Source: a virus (lineage: Duplodnaviria > Caudoviricetes). From it: a stretch of 25,296 bases of DNA. The DNA lies in the IMG/VR virus record IMGVR_UViG_3300042822_000018, positions 1 to 25,296 of that record; one strand, given 5' to 3'. The notes beneath the pieces were generated by a model. The model saw nothing but the letters and a program-made list of their open reading frames with translations, searched no databases and was not told the origin of the DNA. Every line of letters starts with the position of its first letter. Position 1 is the stretch's first letter. Position numbers and translations under genes: made by a program. This document shows positions 4,680 through 22,359 of this stretch, one piece after another.

Positions 4680-5141
4680 GTGAGCCTCACTGTGGTGCCG
4701 GTGACGTTCAGGCAGGCATGCGCGTTCGTGACCGAGTTGCATCGACATAACAAGGCGCCCCGAGGTCACAAATTCTCGGTCGGATTGTCGAACGGGGAGC
4801 GCCTTGTCGGGGTGGCCATGGCGGGGCGGCCGGTGGCTCGAGTGCTGGATGATGGACTGACGGTGGAGATCAACAGAACGTGCACCGATGGCACGCCAAA
4901 CGCCAATTCGATGCTCTACGGGGCGGCGTGGCGCGCAGCCAAGGCGATGGGTTACCGCAGGGGCGTGACTTACACGCAGGCCGAGGAGTCTGGCGCATCT
5001 CTACGCGCGGCTGGCTGGAAATGCGTTGCCGATCTCGCGCCGCGAGGGTCCTGGAAAGAGTCCAGCGTGGCGCTGGCCGAGCTGCGCGATGATGTGGGGA
5101 ACGGCGGCGTTGCTCGCTGTCGCTGGGAGATTCTGGCATGA
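4680..5141 (+). CDS. XF1762-family protein (Mom-like GNAT fold, putative DNA modification)
   Basis: HRHNKAPRGHKFSVG, GRPVARVLDDG, EINRTCTDGTPNANSMLYGAAWRAAKAMGY, TYT..EESGASLRAAGW. Confidence 0.8.
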   Translation: MSLTVVPVTFRQACAFVTELHRHNKAPRGHKFSVGLSNGERLVGVAMAGRPVARVLDDGLTVEINRTCTDGTPNANSMLYGAAWRAAKAMGYRRGVTYTQAEESGASLRAAGWKCVADLAPRGSWKESSVALAELRDDVGNGGVARCRWEILA

Positions 5142-6552: not shown

Positions 6553-6807
6553 ATGGCTGACTCAGCGCTGAACTACCTTCGCCAACGGATCAGGGAAAAC
6601 GACAGCCTCCCCGAGGGGGCGCGCTGCCGCGAACTCCGGGAAGCTTGCGGCCTGACGGTGGCCGATATGGCCACGGCCATGGATGTGACCGGTGCGGCAA
6701 TCCGCCAGTGGGAGCGCGGAGAGCGCACGCCACGTGGCGCCCTGCGCGCTCAATGGATCGAGGTCATGCGCGGCCTGGAGCGTGAGATCTCTGCGCGTTC
6801 CGAATGA
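6553..6807 (+). CDS. XRE/Cro-family HTH regulator
   Basis: RELREACGLTVADMATAMDVTGAAIRQWERGERTP. Confidence 0.88.
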   Translation: MADSALNYLRQRIRENDSLPEGARCRELREACGLTVADMATAMDVTGAAIRQWERGERTPRGALRAQWIEVMRGLEREISARSE

Positions 6808-8327
6808 CCGCAGGCGTCCTGGCGCAGGTGGCCGACGTCATCGACCCTGATGCCGTCGTCGAGCGCCCCGAGTTGGCCACCCCGACCACCCTGGCCGCCC
6901 ATCTCGACCCGCGCTATCAGGTCCGGGCCCACCTCACTCTGATCGGCGAAGAGCTCGTCAAGCTTGAGGCCGGCGACGAGTTCGACCGGCTGCTGCTCAA
7001 CACTCCGCCGCGCGTGGGGAAGACGAAGACCGCGGTTGAGTGGTTCTGTTTCTGGTGGCTGATCAAGCACCCGACCAGGCGCATCATCATCGGGTCCTAC
7101 GGCGACCAGCTGGCCCGCCGCGCCGGCAAGCACATCCGTGACCTGATCGAACGCCACGGCGCGCTGTACGGCCTGACCCTGCAGCGCGGCTCGGCCGCAG
7201 CCAACGACTGGGAGACCAGCGCCGGCGGCGGCGTCCGCTCGGTCGGTGTCGGGTCGGGCATCACCGGCCACGATGGCGACCTCATCATCATCGACGACCC
7301 GACCAAGTCCCGCGCCGAGGCTGAATCCGTGGCTAGGCGTGACGGCATCTGGGACTGGTACTCGGCCGACATCGGGTCCCGCGTCATGCCGGACACTCGA
7401 CTGTTGCTCGTGCAGACGCCCTGGCACCCGGACGACCTGCGCGCCCGGGTCGTACGCCAGGAAGGCCGGGTCGAAGACGGCGGGAAGTGGCATGTCGTCG
7501 TCATGGCCGCCCTGGCCGAAGACCCTGACGACCCGCTGGGCCGCGGCTTCGGCGAGCCTCTCCCGCATCCCCGCATCGCCGAGGGGGACACGAACCGGCT
7601 GGTCAAGTACTGGGAGCGGATGCGCTCGTCGCGGGGCGTGCGCGACTGGCGGGCCCTGTACCAGTGCGACCCGAAGGCGCCGCTGGGCCAGTTGGCCACG
7701 GCAGAGTTGCTGCGGGAGCGGCGGTGCTTCGAGTCGCGGTCATGCGGGGCGCCAGGGCGGACCGGGGTGGCCGTCGACCCGAGCGGCGGCGGGCGCGACG
7801 TGGCCGGCATCATCGGCGGGCACCTGGACGACGGGCAGCGCTGCGTGTTCACGCACGACCGGTCCGGGGTGATGGGCTCGGCGGAATGGGGCCGGGCCGC
7901 GTGTCAGTTGGCCGCCGAGATCGGGGCCGACTTCTTCGTCTTCGAACAGAACTACGGCGGGGACATGGCGGCGGTGGTGATCCGCACCGCCTGGGATGCC
8001 CTGCGCCGAGAGGATCCGGAGAAGTATTCCATGTTCGTGCCGATGATCAAGGCGGTCAGCGCGCGGAAGTCGAAGCTGCTGCGCGCCGAGCCGATCGGCC
8101 AGCAGTGGAAGGAAGACCGCTGTCGTACCGGGGCCTACCTGCCCGACCTCGAATCTGAGTGGACGACCTGGGCGCCGGGCGGGGATTCACCGGGGCGCAT
8201 CGACGCTTCGGTCTACCTGGCGTACGAGTTGCTGCCGCTGCCCAGCGCGGGCACGTCGTCGACCACGGGGGCCATGGATCTGGCCTCGGCCGACCTGCTG
8301 TCGGGTCGGGGCATGTGGGGCCGCTAG
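6804..8327 (+). CDS. terL: Terminase large subunit
   Basis: Walker A NTPPRVGKT, Walker B LIIIDDP, QTPWHPDDL, RNase H-like nuclease VAVDPS, FEQNYGG, SPGRIDA. Confidence 0.93.
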   Translation: MTAGVLAQVADVIDPDAVVERPELATPTTLAAHLDPRYQVRAHLTLIGEELVKLEAGDEFDRLLLNTPPRVGKTKTAVEWFCFWWLIKHPTRRIIIGSYGDQLARRAGKHIRDLIERHGALYGLTLQRGSAAANDWETSAGGGVRSVGVGSGITGHDGDLIIIDDPTKSRAEAESVARRDGIWDWYSADIGSRVMPDTRLLLVQTPWHPDDLRARVVRQEGRVEDGGKWHVVVMAALAEDPDDPLGRGFGEPLPHPRIAEGDTNRLVKYWERMRSSRGVRDWRALYQCDPKAPLGQLATAELLRERRCFESRSCGAPGRTGVAVDPSGGGRDVAGIIGGHLDDGQRCVFTHDRSGVMGSAEWGRAACQLAAEIGADFFVFEQNYGGDMAAVVIRTAWDALRREDPEKYSMFVPMIKAVSARKSKLLRAEPIGQQWKEDRCRTGAYLPDLESEWTTWAPGGDSPGRIDASVYLAYELLPLPSAGTSSTTGAMDLASADLLSGRGMWGR

Positions 8328-10770: not shown

Positions 10771-10926
10771 ACCGGAGCCCAGCCGCTCCGGTCATGCGGC
10801 CCCCGTCGCGCGCTCTACTCCCCGTATGAGAGCGCCCGGGGGCCGCTCCATGTCCGGCCTGCCTGCGCGGCGATGTACGCCCCCGTGATCTCCGTCTACG
10901 ATGGGGCAACGGCGAGCCACGGGGGT
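10771..10926 (+). promoter_or_regulatory. Structured intergenic region with hairpins and candidate late promoter of the portal gene
   Basis: Hairpins at 10771-10792 and 10796-10846; CCGTCTACGATG at 10892-10903 is repeated at 20411-20422. Confidence 0.55.
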
Positions 10927-10930
10927 GATC

Positions 10931-12595
10931 ATGCCGCAGAGCCTGCGCCTGCCGGCCCTGATCCAGCGTCCGGCCGCCCCGACCCAGGTGGCGCCGGACT
11001 CCGCGCTGGTCGCCGCCGCCCAGGCGTACACGCCCGGTGAGTGGCGCAACGCGCAGATCTTCGGCGGCAACAACCCGTGGGAGTCTGAGGCCTGGGGCTT
11101 CTGGGACACCCTCGGCGAGTTCTATCAGGCCGTCGACTGGCAGTCCCGCGCCATGTCCCGCATCCGCCTCGGTGCTGCCGAGGTCGTGCCCGGCGGGGAT
11201 GAGCCGGAGATGCTGACCGAAGGCCCGGCCGCCGACCTCATGCAGTCGTTCTGTGGCGGGGCGCCCGGCCATTCGGCCTTCCTGCGTGCCATCACTCCGC
11301 AGCTGCTCGTGCCCGGCCAGGGCTGGCTGATCGCCGAGCGCGACGATCCGTTCGCGCCGCTGGCCGCCGCCGAGTGGGGCGTCTACTCGATGGACTGCGT
11401 CCAGGGCCTGGGTGGCACGTTCCAGGTGCGGGTCGGCCCGGGCGCGTGGCGCTACCTGGCCCCCGACAACCTGCCCATGCGCATCTACAACCCGCACCCG
11501 CGCTGGCCCTGGCTGGCGACCAGCTCGGCCCAGGCCGCCCTGCCGATCATGCGCCGGATCCAGCTCATCGACTCGCGCATCGTGGCGATGATGGTGTCCC
11601 GGCTGGCGATGAACGGAATCATGTTGATTCCGCAAGAAGGCACCATCGGGGTGCCTGACCAGTACAAGGACGCCCCGGACCCCTTCGTGGCCATGCTCAT
11701 CGAGATCGCCTCGCGCAACATCGCCAACCCCGGCCAGGCCAGCGCCGGCATCCCGATCCCGATCAAGTTCACCGGCGACCTGATCGAAAAGTGGAAGATC
11801 CTGAAGGCCGACGACCCGCTCGATGAGTGGCTGCTGAAAGAGCGCACCGACGAGTTGGGCCGGCTCGGCGACTCACTGGGCATCGCACGGGAGCGCGTCT
11901 CGGGCGGCATGGGCCAGCAGAATCACTGGAACCTCTGGGGCATCAACGAGGAAGAGATCAACCTTTCGTTCAGCCCCATCGCCGAGACGGTGTGCGGCGC
12001 GGTCACGAAGGCCTACCTGAAGCCGATGCTGGTCGCCTCGGGCCAGAGCCTCGTCGGCCCGCAGGGCGGAAAGATCATCGTCTGGTACGACACCAGCGAG
12101 CTCGCCGCGCGGCCCGACAACTCGGCCAACGTGCGCCAGGGCTACGTGGACGGCGTCGTCAATGAGGCCGCCTACCTGCGCGAGATCGGCCTGGGCGAGG
12201 CCGACGCGCTCACAGACACCGCCGAGATCGAGACCTGGGCCTACAAGCGGTTCATTGCCGGCGGCTCGGACGCGCTCGCCCCGGCCGGGCTGGCCGGCCT
12301 CACTGGCGGCTCGCCGCAGCCTGTCGCCCCACAGTCTCCGGCCGCAGGGGTCGCGGCACCGCCGGCTGCATCCGGCGCACCGGCGGTTGGGTCTCCGGCC
12401 CGGCCGTCAGAACCCGCGACCCCCGCGGCCGGCCCGCCCCGCACCAACGGCCAGGCCGCGGTCGCACCGGCCTTGACGGCGACCGCCGGATCCGCGCCCG
12501 ACGTCAACGGCACGCTGCGGCGGGTCCTGGTCGAGGCCGGCGCGCTGACGCCCGAGCGGCCGCGGCGCTACAACGGCCACCACGTCAAGCGGTAG
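10931..12595 (+). CDS. Portal protein
   Basis: Between terL and MuF; WGFWDTLGEF...SRIRL and NHWNLWGINEE motifs typical of actinophage portals; Pro/Ala-rich tail. Confidence 0.85.
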   Translation: MPQSLRLPALIQRPAAPTQVAPDSALVAAAQAYTPGEWRNAQIFGGNNPWESEAWGFWDTLGEFYQAVDWQSRAMSRIRLGAAEVVPGGDEPEMLTEGPAADLMQSFCGGAPGHSAFLRAITPQLLVPGQGWLIAERDDPFAPLAAAEWGVYSMDCVQGLGGTFQVRVGPGAWRYLAPDNLPMRIYNPHPRWPWLATSSAQAALPIMRRIQLIDSRIVAMMVSRLAMNGIMLIPQEGTIGVPDQYKDAPDPFVAMLIEIASRNIANPGQASAGIPIPIKFTGDLIEKWKILKADDPLDEWLLKERTDELGRLGDSLGIARERVSGGMGQQNHWNLWGINEEEINLSFSPIAETVCGAVTKAYLKPMLVASGQSLVGPQGGKIIVWYDTSELAARPDNSANVRQGYVDGVVNEAAYLREIGLGEADALTDTAEIETWAYKRFIAGGSDALAPAGLAGLTGGSPQPVAPQSPAAGVAAPPAASGAPAVGSPARPSEPATPAAGPPRTNGQAAVAPALTATAGSAPDVNGTLRRVLVEAGALTPERPRRYNGHHVKR

Positions 12596-12601
12596 GCCGC
12601 C

Positions 12602-15600
12602 GTGCAGCGCATCCACGGCCTGACCGATGACCAGGTGCGTGCGTTCGAAGCGCGCATCGAGCAGCAGATGGTCGACTCGCTGCAGTACGTGATGGACACC
12701 ATTGCCCGTCGCATCGAGCGCAACGCCATGCCGCAGGTGGCCGCCGCCATGGCGCTGACCGCTGCGGTGACCACCGGTCCGGACGGCGACGACGACCCGC
12801 CGCCCCAGTCCGCCGAGCTTGAGATCCCACCGCCCGAGCCTGAGCCGAACGACATTCCGGCCACTCCCGACCTGCCACCGGGTCAGCCGTACGTGTCGCC
12901 GGACGACCTGGCCTCGATCGCACCGCTCTGGCAGGAGCAGGTCACGCAGCAGTTGGTGCCGATCGCGGCCGAGGTGCTGCAGACGGCCGGCCAGGCGGTG
13001 CTGGCCCAGTTGGTCGACAAGTCCGGCGTGGCCGCGCTCCCCAAGCTCGGCAATCTGGCCGCCGAGACGTATCTGCGCCAGCAGGCCAACACCTTCGATC
13101 AGGTGGGCGACCATCTCTGGCACACTGCCCGGGCGCAGCTGGCGCAGGGCTTCGAAGCCGGCGAGTCCATTCCGCAGTTGGCCGCGCGCCTGCGCCAGTC
13201 GGCCGGCCTGACCGCGCGGACCGGCGTGCTGGTGGCGCGCACGTCGGTGATCGAGTCGTCGAATTTCGGGTCGCTGGCGACGGCGCGGGCCTCGGGCCTG
13301 GCCATGCAGAAAGAGTGGATCGCCACTCCGGACATTCGCACACGTCCTACGCATCTGGCCGCAGATGGCCAGAGAGTAGACATTAACGCCAAGTTCACTG
13401 TCGGCGGTCACGCCGCCGACTTCCCTGCCGACCCTGACCTGCCACCGTCCGAGCGCTACTCATGTCGGTGCACAACGGGCTACATCATGCCCGAACGCCC
13501 GAAGCGCCTACCGGACGCGACGCCCGAGCCCGACCTGGCACAGCTGCCCGGCACGAGCGGGGTGGCCACCGAGATCGAGCCACTGGACCTGACGCCGGCG
13601 GTCGACGAGGCGTTGACGCTGCCGAAGGCCTCGGGCACTGGCGTCGACCAGCCTGCCTATGGCGACCACGCGCCCAGCTATGTCCGTCCGTCTCTGCGCG
13701 ACGCGAAGACGCCGCGGGCGCTGCGGCGGGCGTGGCAGGACGAGGTGCAGGCCATCACCGGCTATCCGTTCCTGGTCGACGCCATGCCGCGCGGCATCTC
13801 GCTGGCCACGGCGCGCGAGTACGCCGAGGGCACGCTGCAGATGTTCACCCAGTTCCCGGCCGCCAAGATGGACCGGATCCACTGGTTCGACGAGGCCGAC
13901 GGGCCCTATGCCCGGGTCCGCAGCGGCGGCCACGCCATCGAGTTCAATATGCGCTACGCCAGCGAGGCCGGCCGGCCCAAGCTGCTGGCTGGCCGGCGCA
14001 AGGATGTCACCGGCTGGGAGTCGGGCACGACGGGCTGGTCGGTGCGCAACGACGTACCGACACAGGGCGTCGTCTACCACGAGTTCGCGCACGTCATCGA
14101 CGAGGAGAACCTGCGCCGGGCCATCCATCCCATGCTCAAACCGCTGATGATCCGTCACGCCACCGCCGAGGGCGTCACCGATATCGACGACCTGATCAAG
14201 CGCCGGATCTCGTCCTACGCGACGAGCGACTCGCACGAGATGATCGCCGAGGCCGTCACCGACGTGATGGTCAACGGCCAGGCCGCCAGCGCCATGTCGC
14301 GCGAGATCTACGACCTGATGGTCGCCGAGTACCGCCGGCGCGGCTTCGCGATCCGCAGCGCCGAGCCGCTCGACGACCTGGCCGCTGAGGCTGAGCGCGA
14401 GGGTCTCGTCTTCCCGAAGGCCGCCGCGCCGAAGACCCTGGCCTCGCAGACGGTCGCGCAGTTGCGCACGCTGGCCAAAGAGCGCGGCATCACAGTGCCG
14501 CCCGGCACGCGCAAGGCCGACCTGGTCCGCATGCTCGACGAAGCGCCGCCGACGGTCGCTCCGGTCGATCTGGCCGCTCAGGCGGTCGCGCGTCAGGCCG
14601 CCATCGACGCCGCTCGCAAGACCGCCCAGTTCGCGACCCGCATCGACGAGATCATCGCCAACGCGGCCACCCCGAAGGCGCTGACGCACACCATCGACAC
14701 CCTGGGGCGACAGGCGGGCCTGTCCGACGCCGAACTGGGCGCACTGCGGGCGCTGGTCGACGACCGCCCGGCACTGCTGGCCGCGGTGCGGGCCCGGGCG
14801 TCCGGACAGGGCGTCGAGGTGCTGGGCTCGACCAACGACGTCGTGCGCTTCGACCGGCGCATCCACCAGGGCATCGACGGCGACCTGCGCCAGGGCCAGA
14901 CCGTGCAGGTGGTCCGCCCGGCCAGCCAGGTCCGCATCGGCGACGAGCTCGTGCCGCTGGACAAGGCGACGGTCGAGGCCACCGACCTGCCGCTCAGCCA
15001 GGCCACGCCGACCCCCGCTGGCCCCGTCCGCGAACTCGCTCCGCCACCCCCGCTGTCCCGCGCCCCGGCCGCCGTCCAGGCCCGCCAGGCGCAGCTGCGC
15101 GAAGACGCCGCCCGGCCGGTCCTGGCCGACAAGTCGCGACGCCAGTCCGGGGCGAATGCGATCACCACGCAGGTCGAGCACAAAGGCGGGCCGCCGACCA
15201 TCACGAAGGACTTCTCGCGCCTCGGCGAGGGCCCGTCCGCCAGCAAGCGCCGCGCCGACGCTGAGGAGTTGGGCGCGCTGACCAGCGAGGCCGTCGGCAT
15301 CCGAGCGCCTGCCGTCATCCGCACCGGGCCGCGCTCGGTCGAGATGGAACACATTGACGGACAGCTCGGAGACGAGATCACTCGCGTCGGTCAGCCGATC
15401 GAAGCCACCGGAATTACCGAGACCGACGAAGGGCGGCTGCTCGGACTGGCCGACATCCTCATGGGGAACAGTGATCGCAACGGTGGGAACTGGATGCGAT
15501 TGGCAGACGGACATCTCGTCGCGATCGACCATGAGGATGCGTTCTACGGCGGGAAGCTCATCGGCGCCGACGACCCGTTCGGCGCCGCACTGGTCGGGCG

Positions 15601-17188
15601 CAAGGGGCTTGATAACGCGAAGTGGCCGAAGGTCATCGACATCAACCCGGCGGACCTGGTCGTCATCCGCGCCCGACTGGAAGGCCTGCGGCCCGAGTTT
15701 GAGCGGCTCGGTCGGGCGACGTGGCACCGGCAGGTCATGGCCCGGCTGGCCGAGGTCGAGAAGCGCGCCGACCCGAACGCCGTCATCCGTCTGGCCGAGG
15801 CCCGCCCCGATCTGGCCACGACAAAGGCCGCCGCGAGGGCTGCGGCACGGGAGCGGGCGGCGGCGATCGGGGCGCAACGCGGCACGGCGGCGCTGCTGGC
15901 GCGGGTCGATGAGCTCGTGGCCAGCAAGGCGTCAAAGGCCGTCATCCGCCAGGAACTCGACCCGGCCCTGCGCGCGCCCGAGCAGCTGTACGCCGGCGCG
16001 GACGATGCGGTCGCCGAGGCGCTGGCCGCCGCCCTGGACTCCGGCGACCTGGCCAAGTTGCGCAGCGCCATCACCCGATCCTCGACCCGGGCGAAGATCA
16101 AGCCCATCGGAAAGGCCGGGGCCAAAGCCAAGTTCGACCCGGCCACTATGGAAGGGGTCGGCGGCGTCGACATCCCGGACGGTGCCGACGTCGTCGTGGT
16201 GCGTCGGGGCGCGACGCTGCAGGGCGTCGAGACGCCAGAGAAGGCCGTCGTGCGTCTGGACGTCAAGCCGGTCAAGGCCGCCCCGACGAAGCCCTTCAGC
16301 GTGCCGACCGTCGAGCAGATGGCCGACACGGCTGGCGTTTCTCGCGCGGACGTCGCCGAGATCCGGCGTCTGACCCGCACGCTTGACCGGCCGCCCCGGA
16401 TCGTACTGAACGACGATTTCGATGACCGGTTCGCTCAGACTCACGCCGACTCCCAGGTGGTCAAAGAGTTCGCGCAACGCCACCAGGCTATCTACAACCG
16501 GATCGTCCAGGAGCAGTCGATCACTCGGCATTGGTCCGAGGTCATCGCGCCGTCTTTTGCGCGCGGCGGTCGGTCGCTGGCGGAAGTGCGCTCCGAGGCT
16601 GTTGACCGGCTGCGTGCGGCAATCGATGGCCAGCCGGTGATTATCCGTCGCGCCACGGAGTCGCGACTACGGCAGGCGCTGGACGACGGCCGGCTCAAAA
16701 CTCAGTTCGAAACGGGCACATCATCGGGCGTGCTCGACCCGGAGATGCGCGCCAACTTCGAGGCTATGGACTTCGATTACCCGGTGGACCTACCCGGGGC
16801 GCGCCGGCCGGTCTACGGGTATGTCAGCCCCAATGGCGTGCGGCCGGCCATTGAGGACGTCAGTCTCACCTCGTCCTATGGCGACATTCAACTCGTACTG
16901 CGTGATTCGACGCGTCCGCGGATCACGGTCACGGCTGCCGACTCACTCGACCATCGCCGCCATGTTCGACCATCGCCGATAGATAAGATCGACTGGCGCT
17001 CCACGCTCGGGCATGACGTCGACTACGCGTCCGAGGACTATCTGGACGAGCACTACGTTGAGGCTCAGATCCACGGCGGCGTGACCTGGGATGACGTCGC
17101 CGAGGTCGTTTTCGCGCGGAAGCCCGAGGCCTCGACCGTCGCAGCGCTGAAGCTTCGTGGCGTCGCATGGCGAGTGCTGACGAAGTAG
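12602..17188 (+). CDS. MuF (SPP1 gp7-like) minor head protein with polyvalent C-terminal effector domains
   Basis: MuF core KEWIATPDIRTRPTH...FPADP...SCRCT (ends about aa 290); HEFAH zincin; Rho-N-like; two GrpE-like repeats; GNSDRNGGN...IDH kinase; QFETGTS/RPVYG/YVEAQIHGG DUF3626-like. Confidence 0.88.
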   Translation: MQRIHGLTDDQVRAFEARIEQQMVDSLQYVMDTIARRIERNAMPQVAAAMALTAAVTTGPDGDDDPPPQSAELEIPPPEPEPNDIPATPDLPPGQPYVSPDDLASIAPLWQEQVTQQLVPIAAEVLQTAGQAVLAQLVDKSGVAALPKLGNLAAETYLRQQANTFDQVGDHLWHTARAQLAQGFEAGESIPQLAARLRQSAGLTARTGVLVARTSVIESSNFGSLATARASGLAMQKEWIATPDIRTRPTHLAADGQRVDINAKFTVGGHAADFPADPDLPPSERYSCRCTTGYIMPERPKRLPDATPEPDLAQLPGTSGVATEIEPLDLTPAVDEALTLPKASGTGVDQPAYGDHAPSYVRPSLRDAKTPRALRRAWQDEVQAITGYPFLVDAMPRGISLATAREYAEGTLQMFTQFPAAKMDRIHWFDEADGPYARVRSGGHAIEFNMRYASEAGRPKLLAGRRKDVTGWESGTTGWSVRNDVPTQGVVYHEFAHVIDEENLRRAIHPMLKPLMIRHATAEGVTDIDDLIKRRISSYATSDSHEMIAEAVTDVMVNGQAASAMSREIYDLMVAEYRRRGFAIRSAEPLDDLAAEAEREGLVFPKAAAPKTLASQTVAQLRTLAKERGITVPPGTRKADLVRMLDEAPPTVAPVDLAAQAVARQAAIDAARKTAQFATRIDEIIANAATPKALTHTIDTLGRQAGLSDAELGALRALVDDRPALLAAVRARASGQGVEVLGSTNDVVRFDRRIHQGIDGDLRQGQTVQVVRPASQVRIGDELVPLDKATVEATDLPLSQATPTPAGPVRELAPPPPLSRAPAAVQARQAQLREDAARPVLADKSRRQSGANAITTQVEHKGGPPTITKDFSRLGEGPSASKRRADAEELGALTSEAVGIRAPAVIRTGPRSVEMEHIDGQLGDEITRVGQPIEATGITETDEGRLLGLADILMGNSDRNGGNWMRLADGHLVAIDHEDAFYGGKLIGADDPFGAALVGRKGLDNAKWPKVIDINPADLVVIRARLEGLRPEFERLGRATWHRQVMARLAEVEKRADPNAVIRLAEARPDLATTKAAARAAARERAAAIGAQRGTAALLARVDELVASKASKAVIRQELDPALRAPEQLYAGADDAVAEALAAALDSGDLAKLRSAITRSSTRAKIKPIGKAGAKAKFDPATMEGVGGVDIPDGADVVVVRRGATLQGVETPEKAVVRLDVKPVKAAPTKPFSVPTVEQMADTAGVSRADVAEIRRLTRTLDRPPRIVLNDDFDDRFAQTHADSQVVKEFAQRHQAIYNRIVQEQSITRHWSEVIAPSFARGGRSLAEVRSEAVDRLRAAIDGQPVIIRRATESRLRQALDDGRLKTQFETGTSSGVLDPEMRANFEAMDFDYPVDLPGARRPVYGYVSPNGVRPAIEDVSLTSSYGDIQLVLRDSTRPRITVTAADSLDHRRHVRPSPIDKIDWRSTLGHDVDYASEDYLDEHYVEAQIHGGVTWDDVAEVVFARKPEASTVAALKLRGVAWRVLTK

Positions 17189-17198
17189 CATCGAATGC

Positions 17199-17441
17199 GT
17201 GATGGAGGTGGCAGGCCAGGACGGGGATGCTTACCTGGTCGTAGATGGCCCGGTCGGCGCGATCGTCAGTCGCGACCTGCCTGAGCCGCTCATACTGCCA
17301 GTGGCCTCGATCCTGGCTCATCGCGAGTTTGACCCGTACGACGGTCCGCTACCGCGTGGCCTGACGGTCGGCCTCGCCACCCAAATGGCCCAGGCGCGGG
17401 AGCGATTCGAAGCCGGGGACCCCGTCAGCGCGACCAAGTGA
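17199..17441 (+). CDS. Small protein, candidate immunity
   Basis: 80 aa, first gene after the MuF effector. Confidence 0.55.
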   Translation: MMEVAGQDGDAYLVVDGPVGAIVSRDLPEPLILPVASILAHREFDPYDGPLPRGLTVGLATQMAQARERFEAGDPVSATK

Positions 17442-17695
17442 CGTATCATGCGCTCATGAGCTTTCCGATCCGGCGCAACACGGACGGCAGCCTGCCGCAC
17501 GTCGGGCTTGGCGAGCCGAAGTCGATGTACGACGGCGGCACGGGTGACGAGTACGCGACCGCGGCCAAGGCGCTCGAGGACTTCATTGCCGGCTTCAAGC
17601 GAGGTATTGCCGGCGCCACAGCGACGGAGCGCGAGCCGATCCGCGTCACCGCCGAGGTCGGCCAGCCGGTCCCCGAGATCGAGGCAGCGCCGTGA
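17438..17695 (+). CDS. Small hypothetical protein
   Basis: 85 aa; GTGA overlaps on both sides. Confidence 0.55.
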   Translation: MTYHALMSFPIRRNTDGSLPHVGLGEPKSMYDGGTGDEYATAAKALEDFIAGFKRGIAGATATEREPIRVTAEVGQPVPEIEAAP

Positions 17696-17949
17696 CCGCC
17701 CGAGCGCAGGCCCAGTGCGCACCGTCGTGCGCCCGCTACTTGTCCCCGTTCAGCCCGGAGGGGCTGGCCCAGACCCGCACCGCCCCGTTCTGCGCCGCCT
17801 TCCCCGACGGCATTCCCGCTGACATCTGGAAGAACCGTGTCGACCACCGCCAGCCCGTCGAAGGCGACCACGGCCTGCAGTGGACGCCGGTCGACGAGGC
17901 GGTCTACCCGTTCCCCGAGTACGCCATGGCACCCGGAGCGACCAAGTGA
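17692..17949 (+). CDS. Small Cys/His protein of a type seen downstream of long MuF genes; candidate immunity
   Basis: CAPSC...CAAFPDGIPADIW..RVDHRQPVEGDHGLQW. Confidence 0.7.
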   Translation: MTARAQAQCAPSCARYLSPFSPEGLAQTRTAPFCAAFPDGIPADIWKNRVDHRQPVEGDHGLQWTPVDEAVYPFPEYAMAPGATK

Positions 17950-18728
17950 GCGAGCGATTCTGGGAGGACGACGTGCCCTGGCTGGGCGAACATGCCCCGG
18001 ATCCAGAACCTCTCGTCGCGGCCGCCGACGTCGACGCCGGGGCGATGGTCGCGCTCGTGCCCTCCGACGCTGACGCGCAGCGCCTGGCCCTGGCCGGCGG
18101 CGAGCCCGTCGAGCAGCTGCATCTGACCCTGGTCTACCTCGGTGACGCCGTCGACATCAATGAGGCGCAGCGCGCCGAGCTCATCGACGCCGGCCGCGAC
18201 ATGGTCCTGGGCTGGGACGGGGTGGCCGCCGAGGCGTTCGCTCCGGCCATCTTCAACCCGACTGGGCCTGAGCCGTGCGTCGTGCTCATCTGCTCCGGCG
18301 CCGAGCTGGCCGAGTTCTACGAGACGACCATGGCCGACGTCACCGAGATCGTCGACCTGCCCGACGATCTGCATGCACCCTGGATTCCGCACGTGTCATT
18401 GGCCTATGTGGCGCCGGGCGCCGACGTGAACGTCCCGATGCAGCATGCGATCAACGCGACCGGGCCCGTGACGTTCGACCGCCTGCGCTTCGCCTTCGCC
18501 GGCGAGATCACCGACATTCCCATCGTCACCGCCCCACGAGTCCCGGCGCCCCCGCCGGACGAGGCGACCACGGAGGACGGTGACGTGGCCGTTGTCGAGG
18601 CAGCCGCCGAGCCTGAATCCGTGGTCGCCTCGAGCACCCAGATGGCGCCGGACGAGCGCGCGGCCTTCGACGGCTGCTGGCACTGCTACGGGCCGGCCCA
18701 TGTCGGAGCCTGCCCGCCGGCGCTCTGA
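17946..18728 (+). CDS. 2H phosphoesterase (LigT/2'-5' RNA ligase/Acb1-like)
   Basis: Two Hx[T/S] motifs, LHLTLVYLG and WIPHVSLAY; C-terminal CWHC...H...C; GTG17946 coupled to upstream stop. Confidence 0.85.
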   Translation: MSERFWEDDVPWLGEHAPDPEPLVAAADVDAGAMVALVPSDADAQRLALAGGEPVEQLHLTLVYLGDAVDINEAQRAELIDAGRDMVLGWDGVAAEAFAPAIFNPTGPEPCVVLICSGAELAEFYETTMADVTEIVDLPDDLHAPWIPHVSLAYVAPGADVNVPMQHAINATGPVTFDRLRFAFAGEITDIPIVTAPRVPAPPPDEATTEDGDVAVVEAAAEPESVVASSTQMAPDERAAFDGCWHCYGPAHVGACPPAL

Positions 18729-20410: not shown

Positions 20411-20499
20411 CCGTCTACGATGACGCACAAAGCAACCCCCGGATGCAGCTGGGGATGGCCAGCAATGACTGTCCTGTTCCTGCATCACGGGGGTTTCCC
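20411..20499 (+). promoter_or_regulatory. Candidate late promoter and structured 5' leader of the capsid gene
   Basis: TACGAT (20416-20421); AACCCCCGGATGCAG (20434-20448) pairs with CTGCATCACGGGGGTT (20480-20495) over the RBS. Confidence 0.6.
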
Positions 20500-22359
20500 A
20501 TGCCGAAGACCAACGCCCCGGGCACCGGCGATTCGGGTGCCCCCTTCGCCCTGCCCGCGGACCTTACGACGCTCACCGTCGAAGAGCTGACAGCCCTGCA
20601 CGAGTCGGCCACGTCCGAAATGGACACGCTGCTCGGCAACCGCAACCCGGCCGACCTGCCCCGCCTGGGCGAACTGCGCGAGGCCCGCAACACTCTCGGC
20701 GCCCGCCAGTCCGAGCTCGCCACCGAGCAGGCCGAACTGGACCGCCAGTTCGACGACTTCGCCAACGACCTGGCCGCACCGGCCGAGGTCGAGAGCGACA
20801 CGGCCACCGAGCCGGCCCTCGAAGGCGAGGTGCTCGACGCGCAGGCCCCAGCGGGTGCCGCGCCGGCCGCGCCGCAGCTCGTGACCGCGTCGGCCCGGCC
20901 GACCGGCGGAGCGACCACCGCGTCCCGCGAGACGGGCGGCCTGTCCGGCGCCCGTAACCGTCTGAACCCGAGCCTGTCTGCCGCGCGCCAGTCCGCGCCG
21001 GCCGCCGTCACCCAGGCCCCGGCCGCCGAGCTCGCCATGGTCGCCACCGCGGCCAACCCGGCCGGTCAGCTCGCCATGGGCTCGCAGATCTCCCAGTTCC
21101 GCCAGCTCACCGACCTCGCTGAGGTGAGCGCGCGGAACCTGACCGACCAGGCCGGCTTCCGCCCGACGCTGCCCAACGACAACGCCTACCGGCACGCGGC
21201 CCGGCGCCACGACGCCCCGTACGGCGGCACGATGATCGCCTCGATCCGCAACCAGTTCGACACTGTCCTGTCGGACAAGTCCTCGACCGCCGCGGTCGAG
21301 GAGTACATGGCCAAGCTCGAGCGCAGCCGCTCGGCCTCGGCCTTCGAGACGATCGTCGCGGCCGGCGGCTGGTGTGCGCCGAGTCAGATCCGCTACGACT
21401 TCTTCAACATCGCCGCCCAGTCCGGCATGATCGACCTGCCGACGTTCGGCGTCGAGCGGGGCGGCATCAACTTCCCCGTGTCGCCGAGCCTCGCGGACAC
21501 GTTCTCCCCGGCCCTGCCGTGGTACACCGCGTTCAGCAACGCCACCGTCCCGTGGCTCTGGACTGAGGGCAGCGACATCCTCGCGGTGACCGGCTCGCCG
21601 ACCAAGCCGTGCATTCGCGTGCCATGTTCGACCATGAGCGACGTGCGGCTGGAGTGCTACGGCATCTGCCTGACCGCCGGCAACCTGGCCGACAACGCGT
21701 GGCCGGAGTCGACCGCCAACTTCCTGCGGCTGCTCATGGCCGCCCACTACCACGCGGCCAACGCCCGCTACATCTCCGCAATCGCCGGCCTGGCCGTCGC
21801 CAACGCGGGCTGCACGGCGACCGGCTCTGGCGCGGCGGCTCCGCTGCTCAACATCGCCGAGTTGTCCGGCTGGGACTACCGGGCCAAGTACGGCATGGCC
21901 GCCACCGACGTCATCGAGTGGGTCCTGCCCGAGTGGGCCAAGGGCGTCGTCCGGGCCGACCTGGCCAAGCGGACCGGCGTCTCCGACTTCATGCGCATCC
22001 CGGACGACGAGATCGCGCGCTGGTTCGACGTGCGCAACATCCGCGTGCAGTTCGTCCAGGACTACCAGGTGCGCGCGGCCGGCCAGCCCGGTGCGATCAC
22101 CACCGGCGGCATCACCCAGTACCCGAGCACGCTCAAGGGCCTGATGTACGCGGCCGGCACGGTCGCCCGGGGCAACGGCATGAGCCTGGACCTGGGCGTC
22201 GTGCGCGACTCCACGCTCAACGAGACGAACGACTTCACCGCGGCGTGGATGGAAGAGTGCCACCTGATCGCGAAGTTCGGTCACGAGGTGCGCGAGTACA
22301 CCGTCAACATCTGCCCGGACGGCACCACCGGCGCGGCCGACCTGACCGCCTGCTGCTGA
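20500..22359 (+). CDS. Major capsid protein with N-terminal scaffold-like region
   Basis: N-terminal coiled coil and Ala/Pro linker, then VAAGGWCAPSQIRYD, RGGINFP, LDLGVVRDSTLNETND; resembles cluster-B-type actinophage hexamer capsid proteins. Confidence 0.85.
   Translation: MPKTNAPGTGDSGAPFALPADLTTLTVEELTALHESATSEMDTLLGNRNPADLPRLGELREARNTLGARQSELATEQAELDRQFDDFANDLAAPAEVESDTATEPALEGEVLDAQAPAGAAPAAPQLVTASARPTGGATTASRETGGLSGARNRLNPSLSAARQSAPAAVTQAPAAELAMVATAANPAGQLAMGSQISQFRQLTDLAEVSARNLTDQAGFRPTLPNDNAYRHAARRHDAPYGGTMIASIRNQFDTVLSDKSSTAAVEEYMAKLERSRSASAFETIVAAGGWCAPSQIRYDFFNIAAQSGMIDLPTFGVERGGINFPVSPSLADTFSPALPWYTAFSNATVPWLWTEGSDILAVTGSPTKPCIRVPCSTMSDVRLECYGICLTAGNLADNAWPESTANFLRLLMAAHYHAANARYISAIAGLAVANAGCTATGSGAAAPLLNIAELSGWDYRAKYGMAATDVIEWVLPEWAKGVVRADLAKRTGVSDFMRIPDDEIARWFDVRNIRVQFVQDYQVRAAGQPGAITTGGITQYPSTLKGLMYAAGTVARGNGMSLDLGVVRDSTLNETNDFTAAWMEECHLIAKFGHEVREYTVNICPDGTTGAADLTACC

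Follow-up and report, generated by a model that had tools for sequence, protein, structure and literature searches.

A predicted atypical kinase domain of the PI4K-II/CtkA/HipA type in a MuF head protein of a tailed phage and in other phage head proteins

At the outset of infection, the T7 protein kinase Gp0.7 and the T4 ADP-ribosyltransferase Alt covalently modify proteins of host transcription and translation; Alt travels in the phage head and is injected, and Gp0.7 is made after entry and is not packaged. Known head-packed enzymes are mostly ADP-ribosyltransferases (ARTs), nucleases and alarmone synthetases. In phage SPP1 the portal targets gp7, a MuF protein, to the procapsid interior, and gp7 supports the start of infection (sections of PMC6316719). 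Fusions to MuF have been proposed to deliver toxins at infection (sections of PMC6316719 and PMC5576092), and the polyvalent proteins, as presented in sections of Iyer 2017 (PMC5512222), carry kinases, ARTs and peptidases and have been suggested to enter the host by injection and to modify or otherwise affect its proteins. Effector enzymes on MuF and polyvalent proteins, kinases included, are a published general kind (Iyer 2017, Jamet 2017). Here we analyze the viral contig record IMGVR_UViG_3300042822_000018 (25,296 bases, linear, CheckV completeness about 35%; "the window" below is this whole stretch at its full length), which encodes a 1,528-residue polyvalent MuF head protein (12602..17188, + strand, as are all parts of this gene mentioned below). 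A region of ~240 residues in its middle (residues ~822-1062; 15065..15787) is predicted, on the basis of a structural model, to adopt an atypical kinase fold of the PI4K-II/CtkA/HipA type, and none of its catalytic residues has been lost. We consider it rather probable, though well short of certain, that this domain is carried into the capsid by the MuF part, is released at DNA ejection and phosphorylates one or more host proteins before phage gene expression. A known theme, the packed and injected effector, is thus likely carried out here by a kinase family for which we found no description.

Like the polyvalent proteins in the sections of Iyer 2017 mentioned above (PMC5512222), the protein is a long polypeptide of the head module that combines MuF, a zincin-like peptidase module and protein-modifying enzyme domains. 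The kinase clade characterized in those sections is of the Ser/Thr/Tyr type, has a conserved His...Asp, has lost the C-terminal subdomain and occurs mainly in the Verrucomicrobia-Chlamydia group and Bacteroidetes; zeta-toxin kinases on MuF are also mentioned there (PMC5512222). In contrast, the domain described here combines a DR[N/H]xGN loop with an ID[H]G motif, retains helices of the C-lobe and is nearest to PI4K-II and CtkA, and all records of it that we found come from Actinomycetota or their phages; this comparison of the two clades was made with the text of that paper. The arrangement also resembles the MuF polymorphic toxins, in which, according to sections of Jamet 2017 (PMC5576092), an N-terminal MuF domain carries variable enzymatic domains; it differs from them in its internal kinase and in that the window showed no recognizable immunity gene. 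DUF3626 forms the C-terminal domain. The word "kinase" is absent from the main text of Jamet 2017 (PMC5576092), the available text of the 2012 polymorphic-toxin survey contains none of the terms "protein kinase", "HipA" and "PI3K", and a survey of Microbacterium phages notes MuF-VIP2 fusions and no kinase on MuF. Literature searches that did not extend to the supplementary domain list of Iyer 2017 turned up no account of this clade on the head proteins of phages. The domain is also comparable to Gp0.7 and Alt, as a phage enzyme proposed to modify host proteins covalently at the start of infection, but neither of the two was among the matches of any search made here, and Gp0.7 shows no sequence relationship to it as far as tested.

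The five motifs by which the original prediction recognized a kinase within 15090-15770 were located by script in a single open reading frame (ORF), each where it had been placed, and the numbering of D958 proved right. The Gly-rich loop SGANA (residues 849-853; 15146..15160) corresponds to GG..A of the family consensus and is located at the β1-β2 turn of the structural model. ITKDF (residues 867-871; 15200-15214) contains K869 (15206..15208), the predicted ATP-phosphate-binding lysine of strand β3 (47-51 of the model), and AEELG (residues 887-891; 15260-15274) contains the predicted helix-C glutamate E888 (15263..15265; helix 58-79 of the model). The catalytic loop DILMGNSDRNGGNWM (residues 951-965; 15452..15496) provides D958, R959 and N963, and LVAIDH (residues 972-977; 15515-15532) provides the predicted metal-binding aspartate D976 (15527..15529) of an ID[H]G.AF motif equivalent to DFG. 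We predict that K869 and E888 position ATP, that D958 is the catalytic base and that N963 and D976 are Mg ligands. Among the 208 profile-detected copies of the domain in 161 family proteins, these motif residues are the most conserved columns: K869 is kept in 194 of 197 copies, E888 in 192/202 and the adjoining D886 in 183/201, D951, D958 and R959 each in 199/203, N963 in 191/203 and D976 in 200/202, followed by G850 (174/192) and H977 (159/203). All six of the K-E-D-R-N-D set are present in 172 of the 208 copies, and the remainder are mostly truncated copies or carry an E-to-D change. Such near-invariance of the catalytic residues is the pattern that would be expected of an active enzyme and points to selection on the active site; together with the Pfam match and the size of the family described below, it shows that the motifs did not arise by chance.

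The original prediction had proposed a profile search against PI3_PI4_kinase and HipA models. The Pfam family PI3_PI4_kinase (PF00454) matches residues 948-981 with 25.6 bits in the whole protein and 28.2-28.4 bits in the excised domain (cut-off 27.1), whereas the kinase protein has no match to any HipA model of Pfam and no partner of the HipB/HipS type in the window; HipA_2 matches only two of 18 family members, weakly. The same 18 include 14 with a PI3_PI4_kinase match at E<=1, and 40 of 57 further members have one at E<=1e-4, many of them under 27.1 bits. The match is confined to the stretch around the catalytic loop (profile positions 138-172 of 241 here, and within about 122-189 in every relative examined). 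The domain thus falls outside the regular PI3/PI4-kinase family, only about 35-50 of the 241 profile positions being matched, which qualifies the original prediction. PI3K/PI4K lipid kinases have a DRHxxN catalytic loop and a DFG metal-binding motif, as seen in the PI3Kα alignment. The loop of the window copy reads D958-R-N-G-G-N963 and is followed by I-D976-H-E, with the D, R, N and D kept. In the PDB, profiles built from 18 and 24 family sequences pick up PI4K-IIβ, PI3Kα, PI4KB, PI4KA and an ABC1 kinase from mycobacteria, and they align the D976 motif with IDNGLAF of PI4K-IIβ and IDFG of PI3Kα.

The AlphaFold2 model of the domain (from an 18-sequence alignment; mean predicted local distance difference test score, pLDDT, 88.6; predicted template modelling score, pTM, 0.85) has the kinase fold that the original prediction expected. 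Its secondary-structure elements follow the order of a kinase, beginning with an N-terminal helix and three strands, the last of which holds K869; after these come the long helix with E888, two further strands, a helix (123-135) that ends in the D958...N963 loop, a strand pair that ends in D976 (just after strand 153-155), and the C-lobe helices. The elements of a protein-kinase-like fold, i.e. the β3 lysine, the helix-C acid, the Asp/Asn loop and the metal-binding Asp, are therefore all found in the predicted structure. Foldseek found 231 matches in the PDB at E<=0.001, with PRPK/Bud32, Rio kinases and CtkA (TM score 0.49) at the head of the list, all at probability 1.00, and kinases also fill the top of a second fold search, in which similarity is given as Z scores: PI4K-IIα (Z 14.0; root mean square deviation 3.9 Å over 214 residues), CtkA (13.4), Fam20-type kinases (12.3-12.9), 7wcf (12.3), actin-fragmin kinase (12.2), CotH (11.1), Rio2 (11.0), HipA (10.8-11.0) and class I-III PI3K/PI4K (8.3-9.2). 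The structure 7wcf is cited in two papers on HipBST toxin-antitoxin systems, and from the abstract of one of them we take it as the Legionella HipT kinase Lpg2370. The placement of the domain in the PI4K-II/HipA/CtkA group, which the original prediction had made from motifs, is correct, judging by the model and both fold searches. Sequence identity is 14% to PI4K-IIα (PDB 4pla), compared with which the domain has no cysteine-rich anchor, is about half the size and is phage-borne, and 10-15% to CtkA of Helicobacter pylori (3akj) and HipA/HipT (4pu3, 5k98, 7wcf, 7ab3).

As PI4K-IIα is a lipid kinase and the top fold match, tied with CtkA, the domain could be a lipid kinase that acts on phosphatidylinositol (PI) or its mannosides in the actinobacterial membrane, at DNA entry or later, and alters membrane properties. 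PI4K-II and PI3K/PI4K sequences give the best alignments to the catalytic loop and to the IDxGxAF motif, Pfam assigns the PI3_PI4_kinase label to the 14 of 18 members mentioned above, and every named host or genome is actinobacterial. Actinomycetota make PI. Nevertheless, CtkA, Fam20C, HipT and actin-fragmin kinase lie at most 2 Z units away, and the limited extent of the Pfam match (about 35-50/241 positions) also speaks against this assignment. PI4K-II enzymes are anchored to membranes by a cysteine-rich palmitoylation insert. Residues 820-1090 contain no cysteine and hence no such palmitoylated motif, no membrane-binding element was detected in the domain, and the companions found in the same chains (ARTs, 2H and zincin-like domains) are typical of effectors directed at proteins or nucleic acids; the range limited to actinobacteria may itself reflect scans with patterns of close relatives. 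We therefore regard a lipid substrate as unlikely, and assign a decidedly low chance to the fuller scenario in which actinobacterial phages load a PI4K-II-like kinase in their capsids and inject it to phosphorylate PI lipids of the host membrane. If true, it would be the first case of a phosphoinositide kinase delivered by a phage, and bacterial PI lipids would for the first time show signs of being an infection battleground. A host protein is the substrate that we favour, by analogy: proteins are the substrates of CtkA, Fam20C, HipA/HipT, actin-fragmin kinase and CotH, which make up five of the six families nearest in structure, and the cassette sits at the positions of toxin domains, beside ARTs. 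The targets suggested in the original prediction (host defence or translation proteins, or inositol lipids) are contradicted by no result obtained here and demonstrated by none.

A HMMER scan of 1.84 billion cluster representatives detected 793 proteins with this domain at E<=1e-3, of which 463 also pass E<=1e-10 and 65 pass E<=1e-30, the 793 being clusters at 50% identity. One copy is present in 124 of the 161 proteins used for counting, two in 30, three in five and four in two, and every copy is intact in 21 of the 37 multi-copy proteins. The domain stands alone (<=330 residues) in 26/161 proteins, ends <=40 residues from the C-terminus in 78/161, and is internal, as in the window, in 57. 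A search for shorter proteins added five further fragments and no named protein. Some BFVD entries from uncultured phages are automatically named "PI3K/PI4K catalytic domain-containing protein", and in the ESM Atlas the clusters closest to it are "hypothetical proteins" of viruses. A 5,053-residue Streptosporangium frame (18 kb of genome; L033) consists of about six units of ~800 residues, two of which have the full kinase score; in each of the other four, the score is confined to the helix-C region and the C-terminal helices. Because these strongly conserved helices (ARLEALRPEFERLG..W) give a score by themselves in giant proteins, we considered whether they form a separate module, but in this one frame examined the units retain the helix-C region ~200 residues upstream, which identifies them as degenerate kinase copies. 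Such copies, together with the leading position of PRPK/Bud32 and Rio kinases in the Foldseek results, could suggest that the domain is an ATPase switch or a pseudokinase scaffold that transfers no phosphate to a substrate, as proposed for Rio and Bud32. The window copy and the 172 copies with a complete set keep all catalytic residues, the base D958 included, and we give this interpretation very little credence.

The original prediction placed the kinase inside a MuF head protein, and this is borne out by a match to Pfam Phage_Mu_F in the same polypeptide (54.6 bits, cut-off 29.6; residues 177-292, 13130..13477), with a portal gene adjoining as is usual for Phage_Mu_F/SPP1 gp7 head proteins. 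The match to phrog_2468 (head morphogenesis) spans residues 106-302, PHROGs relates the whole protein to head morphogenesis and portal-associated families (E 6e-33), and NCBIfam gave sub-threshold matches only, to phageSPP1_gp7 and the SCO1664 family. We predict that this MuF domain is the capsid-targeting part. The ORF is free of stops, starts with GTG 7 nt past the end of the portal gene and has a G+C content of 0.84-0.87 at third codon positions versus 0.48-0.50 at second positions, as in a real gene of a high-GC genome, and the frame is coding. An identical 1,528-residue protein is encoded on a 56-kb viral contig (L002).

What the original prediction described as a single fusion turns out to be one copy of a widespread cassette, also found on portal, minor-capsid-2 and VG15 proteins. 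In 16 related viral loci, the ORF with the kinase also contains Phage_Mu_F in four (L003, L005, L006, L007), Phage_min_cap2 in five (L008, L009, L015, L016, L017), VG15 in one (L010) and Portal_Mu in one (L004); the remaining five have none of these domains: L011 is a 2,896-residue giant, L012 is a stand-alone protein of 274 residues, L013 and L018 show no other domain, and L014 has a weak ART and Rho_N. Similarly, 57 mid-size representatives include MuF in seven, VG15 in seven, Phage_portal in two and min_cap2 in one, as well as an ART in six, a 2H domain in two and SAP/HeH/Rho_N motifs in six. The 23 close relatives comprise 16 with Phage_Mu_F and two with Phage_portal, 11 with ADPrib_exo_Tox and three with DUF3626, i.e. 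kinase and NAD-using domain (a VIP2-type ART or DUF3626) travel together. The kinase is thus a shuffled cassette on MuF, minor capsid protein 2, two portal families or VG15, often accompanied by ARTs. The most plausible reason for one enzymatic cassette to follow head-interior or portal proteins of at least five unrelated kinds is a common need to be in the capsid, and this shuffling, with the ART companionship, argues for a capsid-packed, injected cargo.

Fusions to head-assembly proteins (MuF, portal, min_cap2, VG15) could also be read as the sign of an assembly kinase, which would phosphorylate phage head, scaffold or internal proteins in the producing cell or procapsid, as CotH does with spore-coat proteins, and would have no action on the next host. 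However, the 26 stand-alone proteins, the many copies in giant non-head proteins of bacterial genomes (frames of 1,688-22,028 residues) and the co-occurrence with ARTs, which are classical host-directed cargo (sections of PMC9503650), argue against this role, and the presence of the domain in only two phages among 50,697 isolate records indicates that it is not part of a conserved assembly pathway. We consider an assembly function improbable.

The two isolates are Micromonospora phage pMLP1, with a 647-residue min_cap2-kinase fusion, and Microbacterium phage Pumpernickel (two records), in which the domain ends the 2,235-residue gp82; tblastn against the 50,697 phage isolate records found the domain in no others, the kinase of L009 as query found only pMLP1, and megablast of the whole gene against the same records gave no match. 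In genomes of Actinoallomurus, Nocardia and Streptosporangium the domain occurs in the above-mentioned open frames of 1,688-22,028 residues, several copies in each. A scan of genome contigs with a narrower family alignment yielded 12 loci, all from Actinomycetota, and a scan with the single kinase protein as query yielded no relative. All named hosts and genomes (Micromonospora, Microbacterium, Actinoallomurus, Nocardia and Streptosporangium; a handful of records) belong to Actinomycetota. Because the scan patterns favour close relatives, this range may be a sampling effect, and it does not bound the host range.

Beside MuF and the kinase, the window protein contains several other modules, so that MuF, an HExxH module, HeH, the kinase and DUF3626 are united in one viral ORF, as is characteristic of polyvalent proteins. 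A zincin-like module (residues 482-578; 14045..14335) with HEFAH at 14078-14092 (located by script) resembles Peptidase_M90 (17.9-21.5 bits, below the cut-off of 26.2) and is present in 41 of 160 other family proteins according to blastp, usually right behind MuF; to judge from sequence, it is possibly a self-processing peptidase of these polyvalent proteins. It is followed by a helix-extension-helix motif of the HeH/SAP/Rho_N type (residues 613-647; 14438..14542), which is sub-threshold here (HeH 20.3 bits, Rho_N 15.7 bits) and reaches the Pfam cut-off in the relatives L006 and L014. The kinase is flanked by two paralogous connector modules of ~135 residues, copy 1 before it (residues 655-795; 14564..14986) and copy 2 after it (residues 1091-1227; 15872..16282), which are 28% identical (pairwise BLAST E 0.002) and share the motif FD..G..G.D..G..V.VVR. 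Copy 2 is found in 48/160 other family proteins at varying positions, mostly with 50-78% identity, and is often better conserved than the enzymes it separates. The connector is modelled as a four-helix bundle with a poorly predicted tail (pLDDT 70.7) and has no informative fold match; a suspected likeness of the two modules to the C-terminal domain of GrpE (FDPxxHEA) found no support in Pfam or PDB profile searches. The second predicted effector is the C-terminal DUF3626/phrog_8314 domain (residues 1341-1525; 16622..17176), with 30.4 bits for DUF3626 on the excised part (cut-off 27), 24.4 bits on the whole protein and E 5e-17 for phrog_8314. The Salmonella effector SopF is an ADP-ribosyltransferase. 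DUF3626 is a domain of SopF, as stated in a section of PMC6682159.

The companionship with NAD-using domains could point to yet another function, namely that the kinase modifies a small molecule (a nucleotide signal, a derivative of NAD or ADP-ribose, or an antibiotic) and thereby blunts a host immune signal or partners the ART or DUF3626 domain. ADPrib_exo_Tox or DUF3626 is present in the same chain in 14/23 close relatives, a 2H phosphoesterase-like gene adjoins (17880-18728) and 2H domains are fused in two relatives, and a corramycin phosphotransferase matches the N-lobe (E 0.022). Matches of the latter kind, though, rank well under those to protein and lipid kinases, no defence-system model of PADLOC was matched, and nothing ties the domain to a known signal pathway, hence we doubt that it acts in this way. 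Together with the assembly and ATPase-only interpretations, this one is a weaker rival of the host-protein kinase.

With regard to how an injected host-protein kinase would work, SPP1 gp7/MuF and the polyvalent proteins suggest that the MuF part may dock the protein on the portal, with a few copies packed per head, and that the chain may be packed together with the DNA and leave via the tail at ejection. The HExxH module might free the kinase from the neighbouring domains, and in the host cytoplasm the kinase would then act along with the DUF3626 domain and, it may be, the HExxH module itself. In 78 of the 161 family proteins the kinase is at the C-terminal end, which is the position of the toxin domain in MuF polymorphic toxins.

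Several observations weigh against this scenario. The kinase is internal here and must work within a 160-kDa chain or be excised, and the HExxH module that could excise it is identified by a sub-threshold Pfam match. Residue 960 is Asn instead of the His of the DRH motif (Asn is present in 112 and His in 49 of 203 family copies), and Phe-Gly is replaced by His-Glu/Gly. A single-sequence phmmer search of the domain against the PDB gave no matches at E<=10, and the PDB matches of the family profiles are marginal (E 0.0026-0.03) and cover the catalytic loop and the metal-binding motif only. The lead of PI4K-IIα over CtkA is less than one Z unit, so that the fold leaves the choice between lipid and protein unsettled. 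No immunity-like gene was recognized in the window, where the ORFs at 17199-17949 match nothing informative, and the WSNGYV protein described below is absent from it (hhalign probability 0.1). Packaging, ejection, processing and phosphotransfer are all steps that we infer.

The ORFs just mentioned are three small ones on the + strand (80, 85 and 85 residues; 17199-17949), directly 3' of the MuF gene, each of which shares four bases of its start with the preceding stop. The first two have no family match, and the only match of the third is phrog_33375, a family of unknown function. All three may serve the effector domains as immunity proteins or chaperones. At other loci, ORFs that end in the kinase are followed by a protein or module of ~65 residues (..VLD.VT..TG.A..L..WSNGYV), found in seven of the 16 viral loci and in pMLP1. 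It lies at 6603-6800 in L009, 5087-5287 in L010 and 6552-6749 in L013, forms the N-terminus in L007 (6876-7829), L014 (6738-7694) and L012 (6705-9833), and also occurs in L011 (10961-11377) and pMLP1 (L031, 5629-5892), and in most loci its ORF shares four bases with the stop of the upstream one. Six metagenomic copies have no PHROG match and the pMLP1 copy has no Pfam match. We regard this protein as a candidate inhibitor or immunity partner of the kinase.

The window, with a G+C content of 66-73%, is a head module of a tailed phage with the gene order terminase, portal, MuF-kinase, major head protein: PHROGs searches identify the large terminase (6804-8327), the portal protein directly upstream of the MuF gene (10901..12595, + strand; phrog_776, E 1.6e-90) and, downstream, the major head protein (20443..22359, + strand; phrog_777, E 1.6e-116). 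Between the MuF gene and the head genes lies a 282-residue ORF (17880-18728) of the 2H/2'-5' RNA ligase superfamily (phrog_2659, E 2e-29; Pfam 21.1 bits, below the cut-off), whose first ~80 residues share homology with the N-terminal ends of its counterparts in L003, L005 and L006. Genes for a DNA methyltransferase (938-2014; phrog_67, E 5.8e-79), a helicase and a Mom-like DNA modification protein (4680-5141; phrog_1384, E 8.5e-40) precede the head genes, and the methyltransferase and Mom-like genes suggest that the DNA of this phage is likely modified.

Enzymes packed in the head act before any phage gene is read and so decide the first minutes of infection. As far as sequence analysis can tell, a large kinase family without a description that we could find appears to use this route of capsid delivery, with at least 793 clusters, at least five head-protein carriers and often two to four copies per protein. 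If active, it would provide new compact kinases with a PI4K-II/CtkA-like active site, for which Micromonospora phage pMLP1 is a cultured carrier, and a handle on those host proteins (or lipids) that actinobacterial phages must switch off or on at entry.

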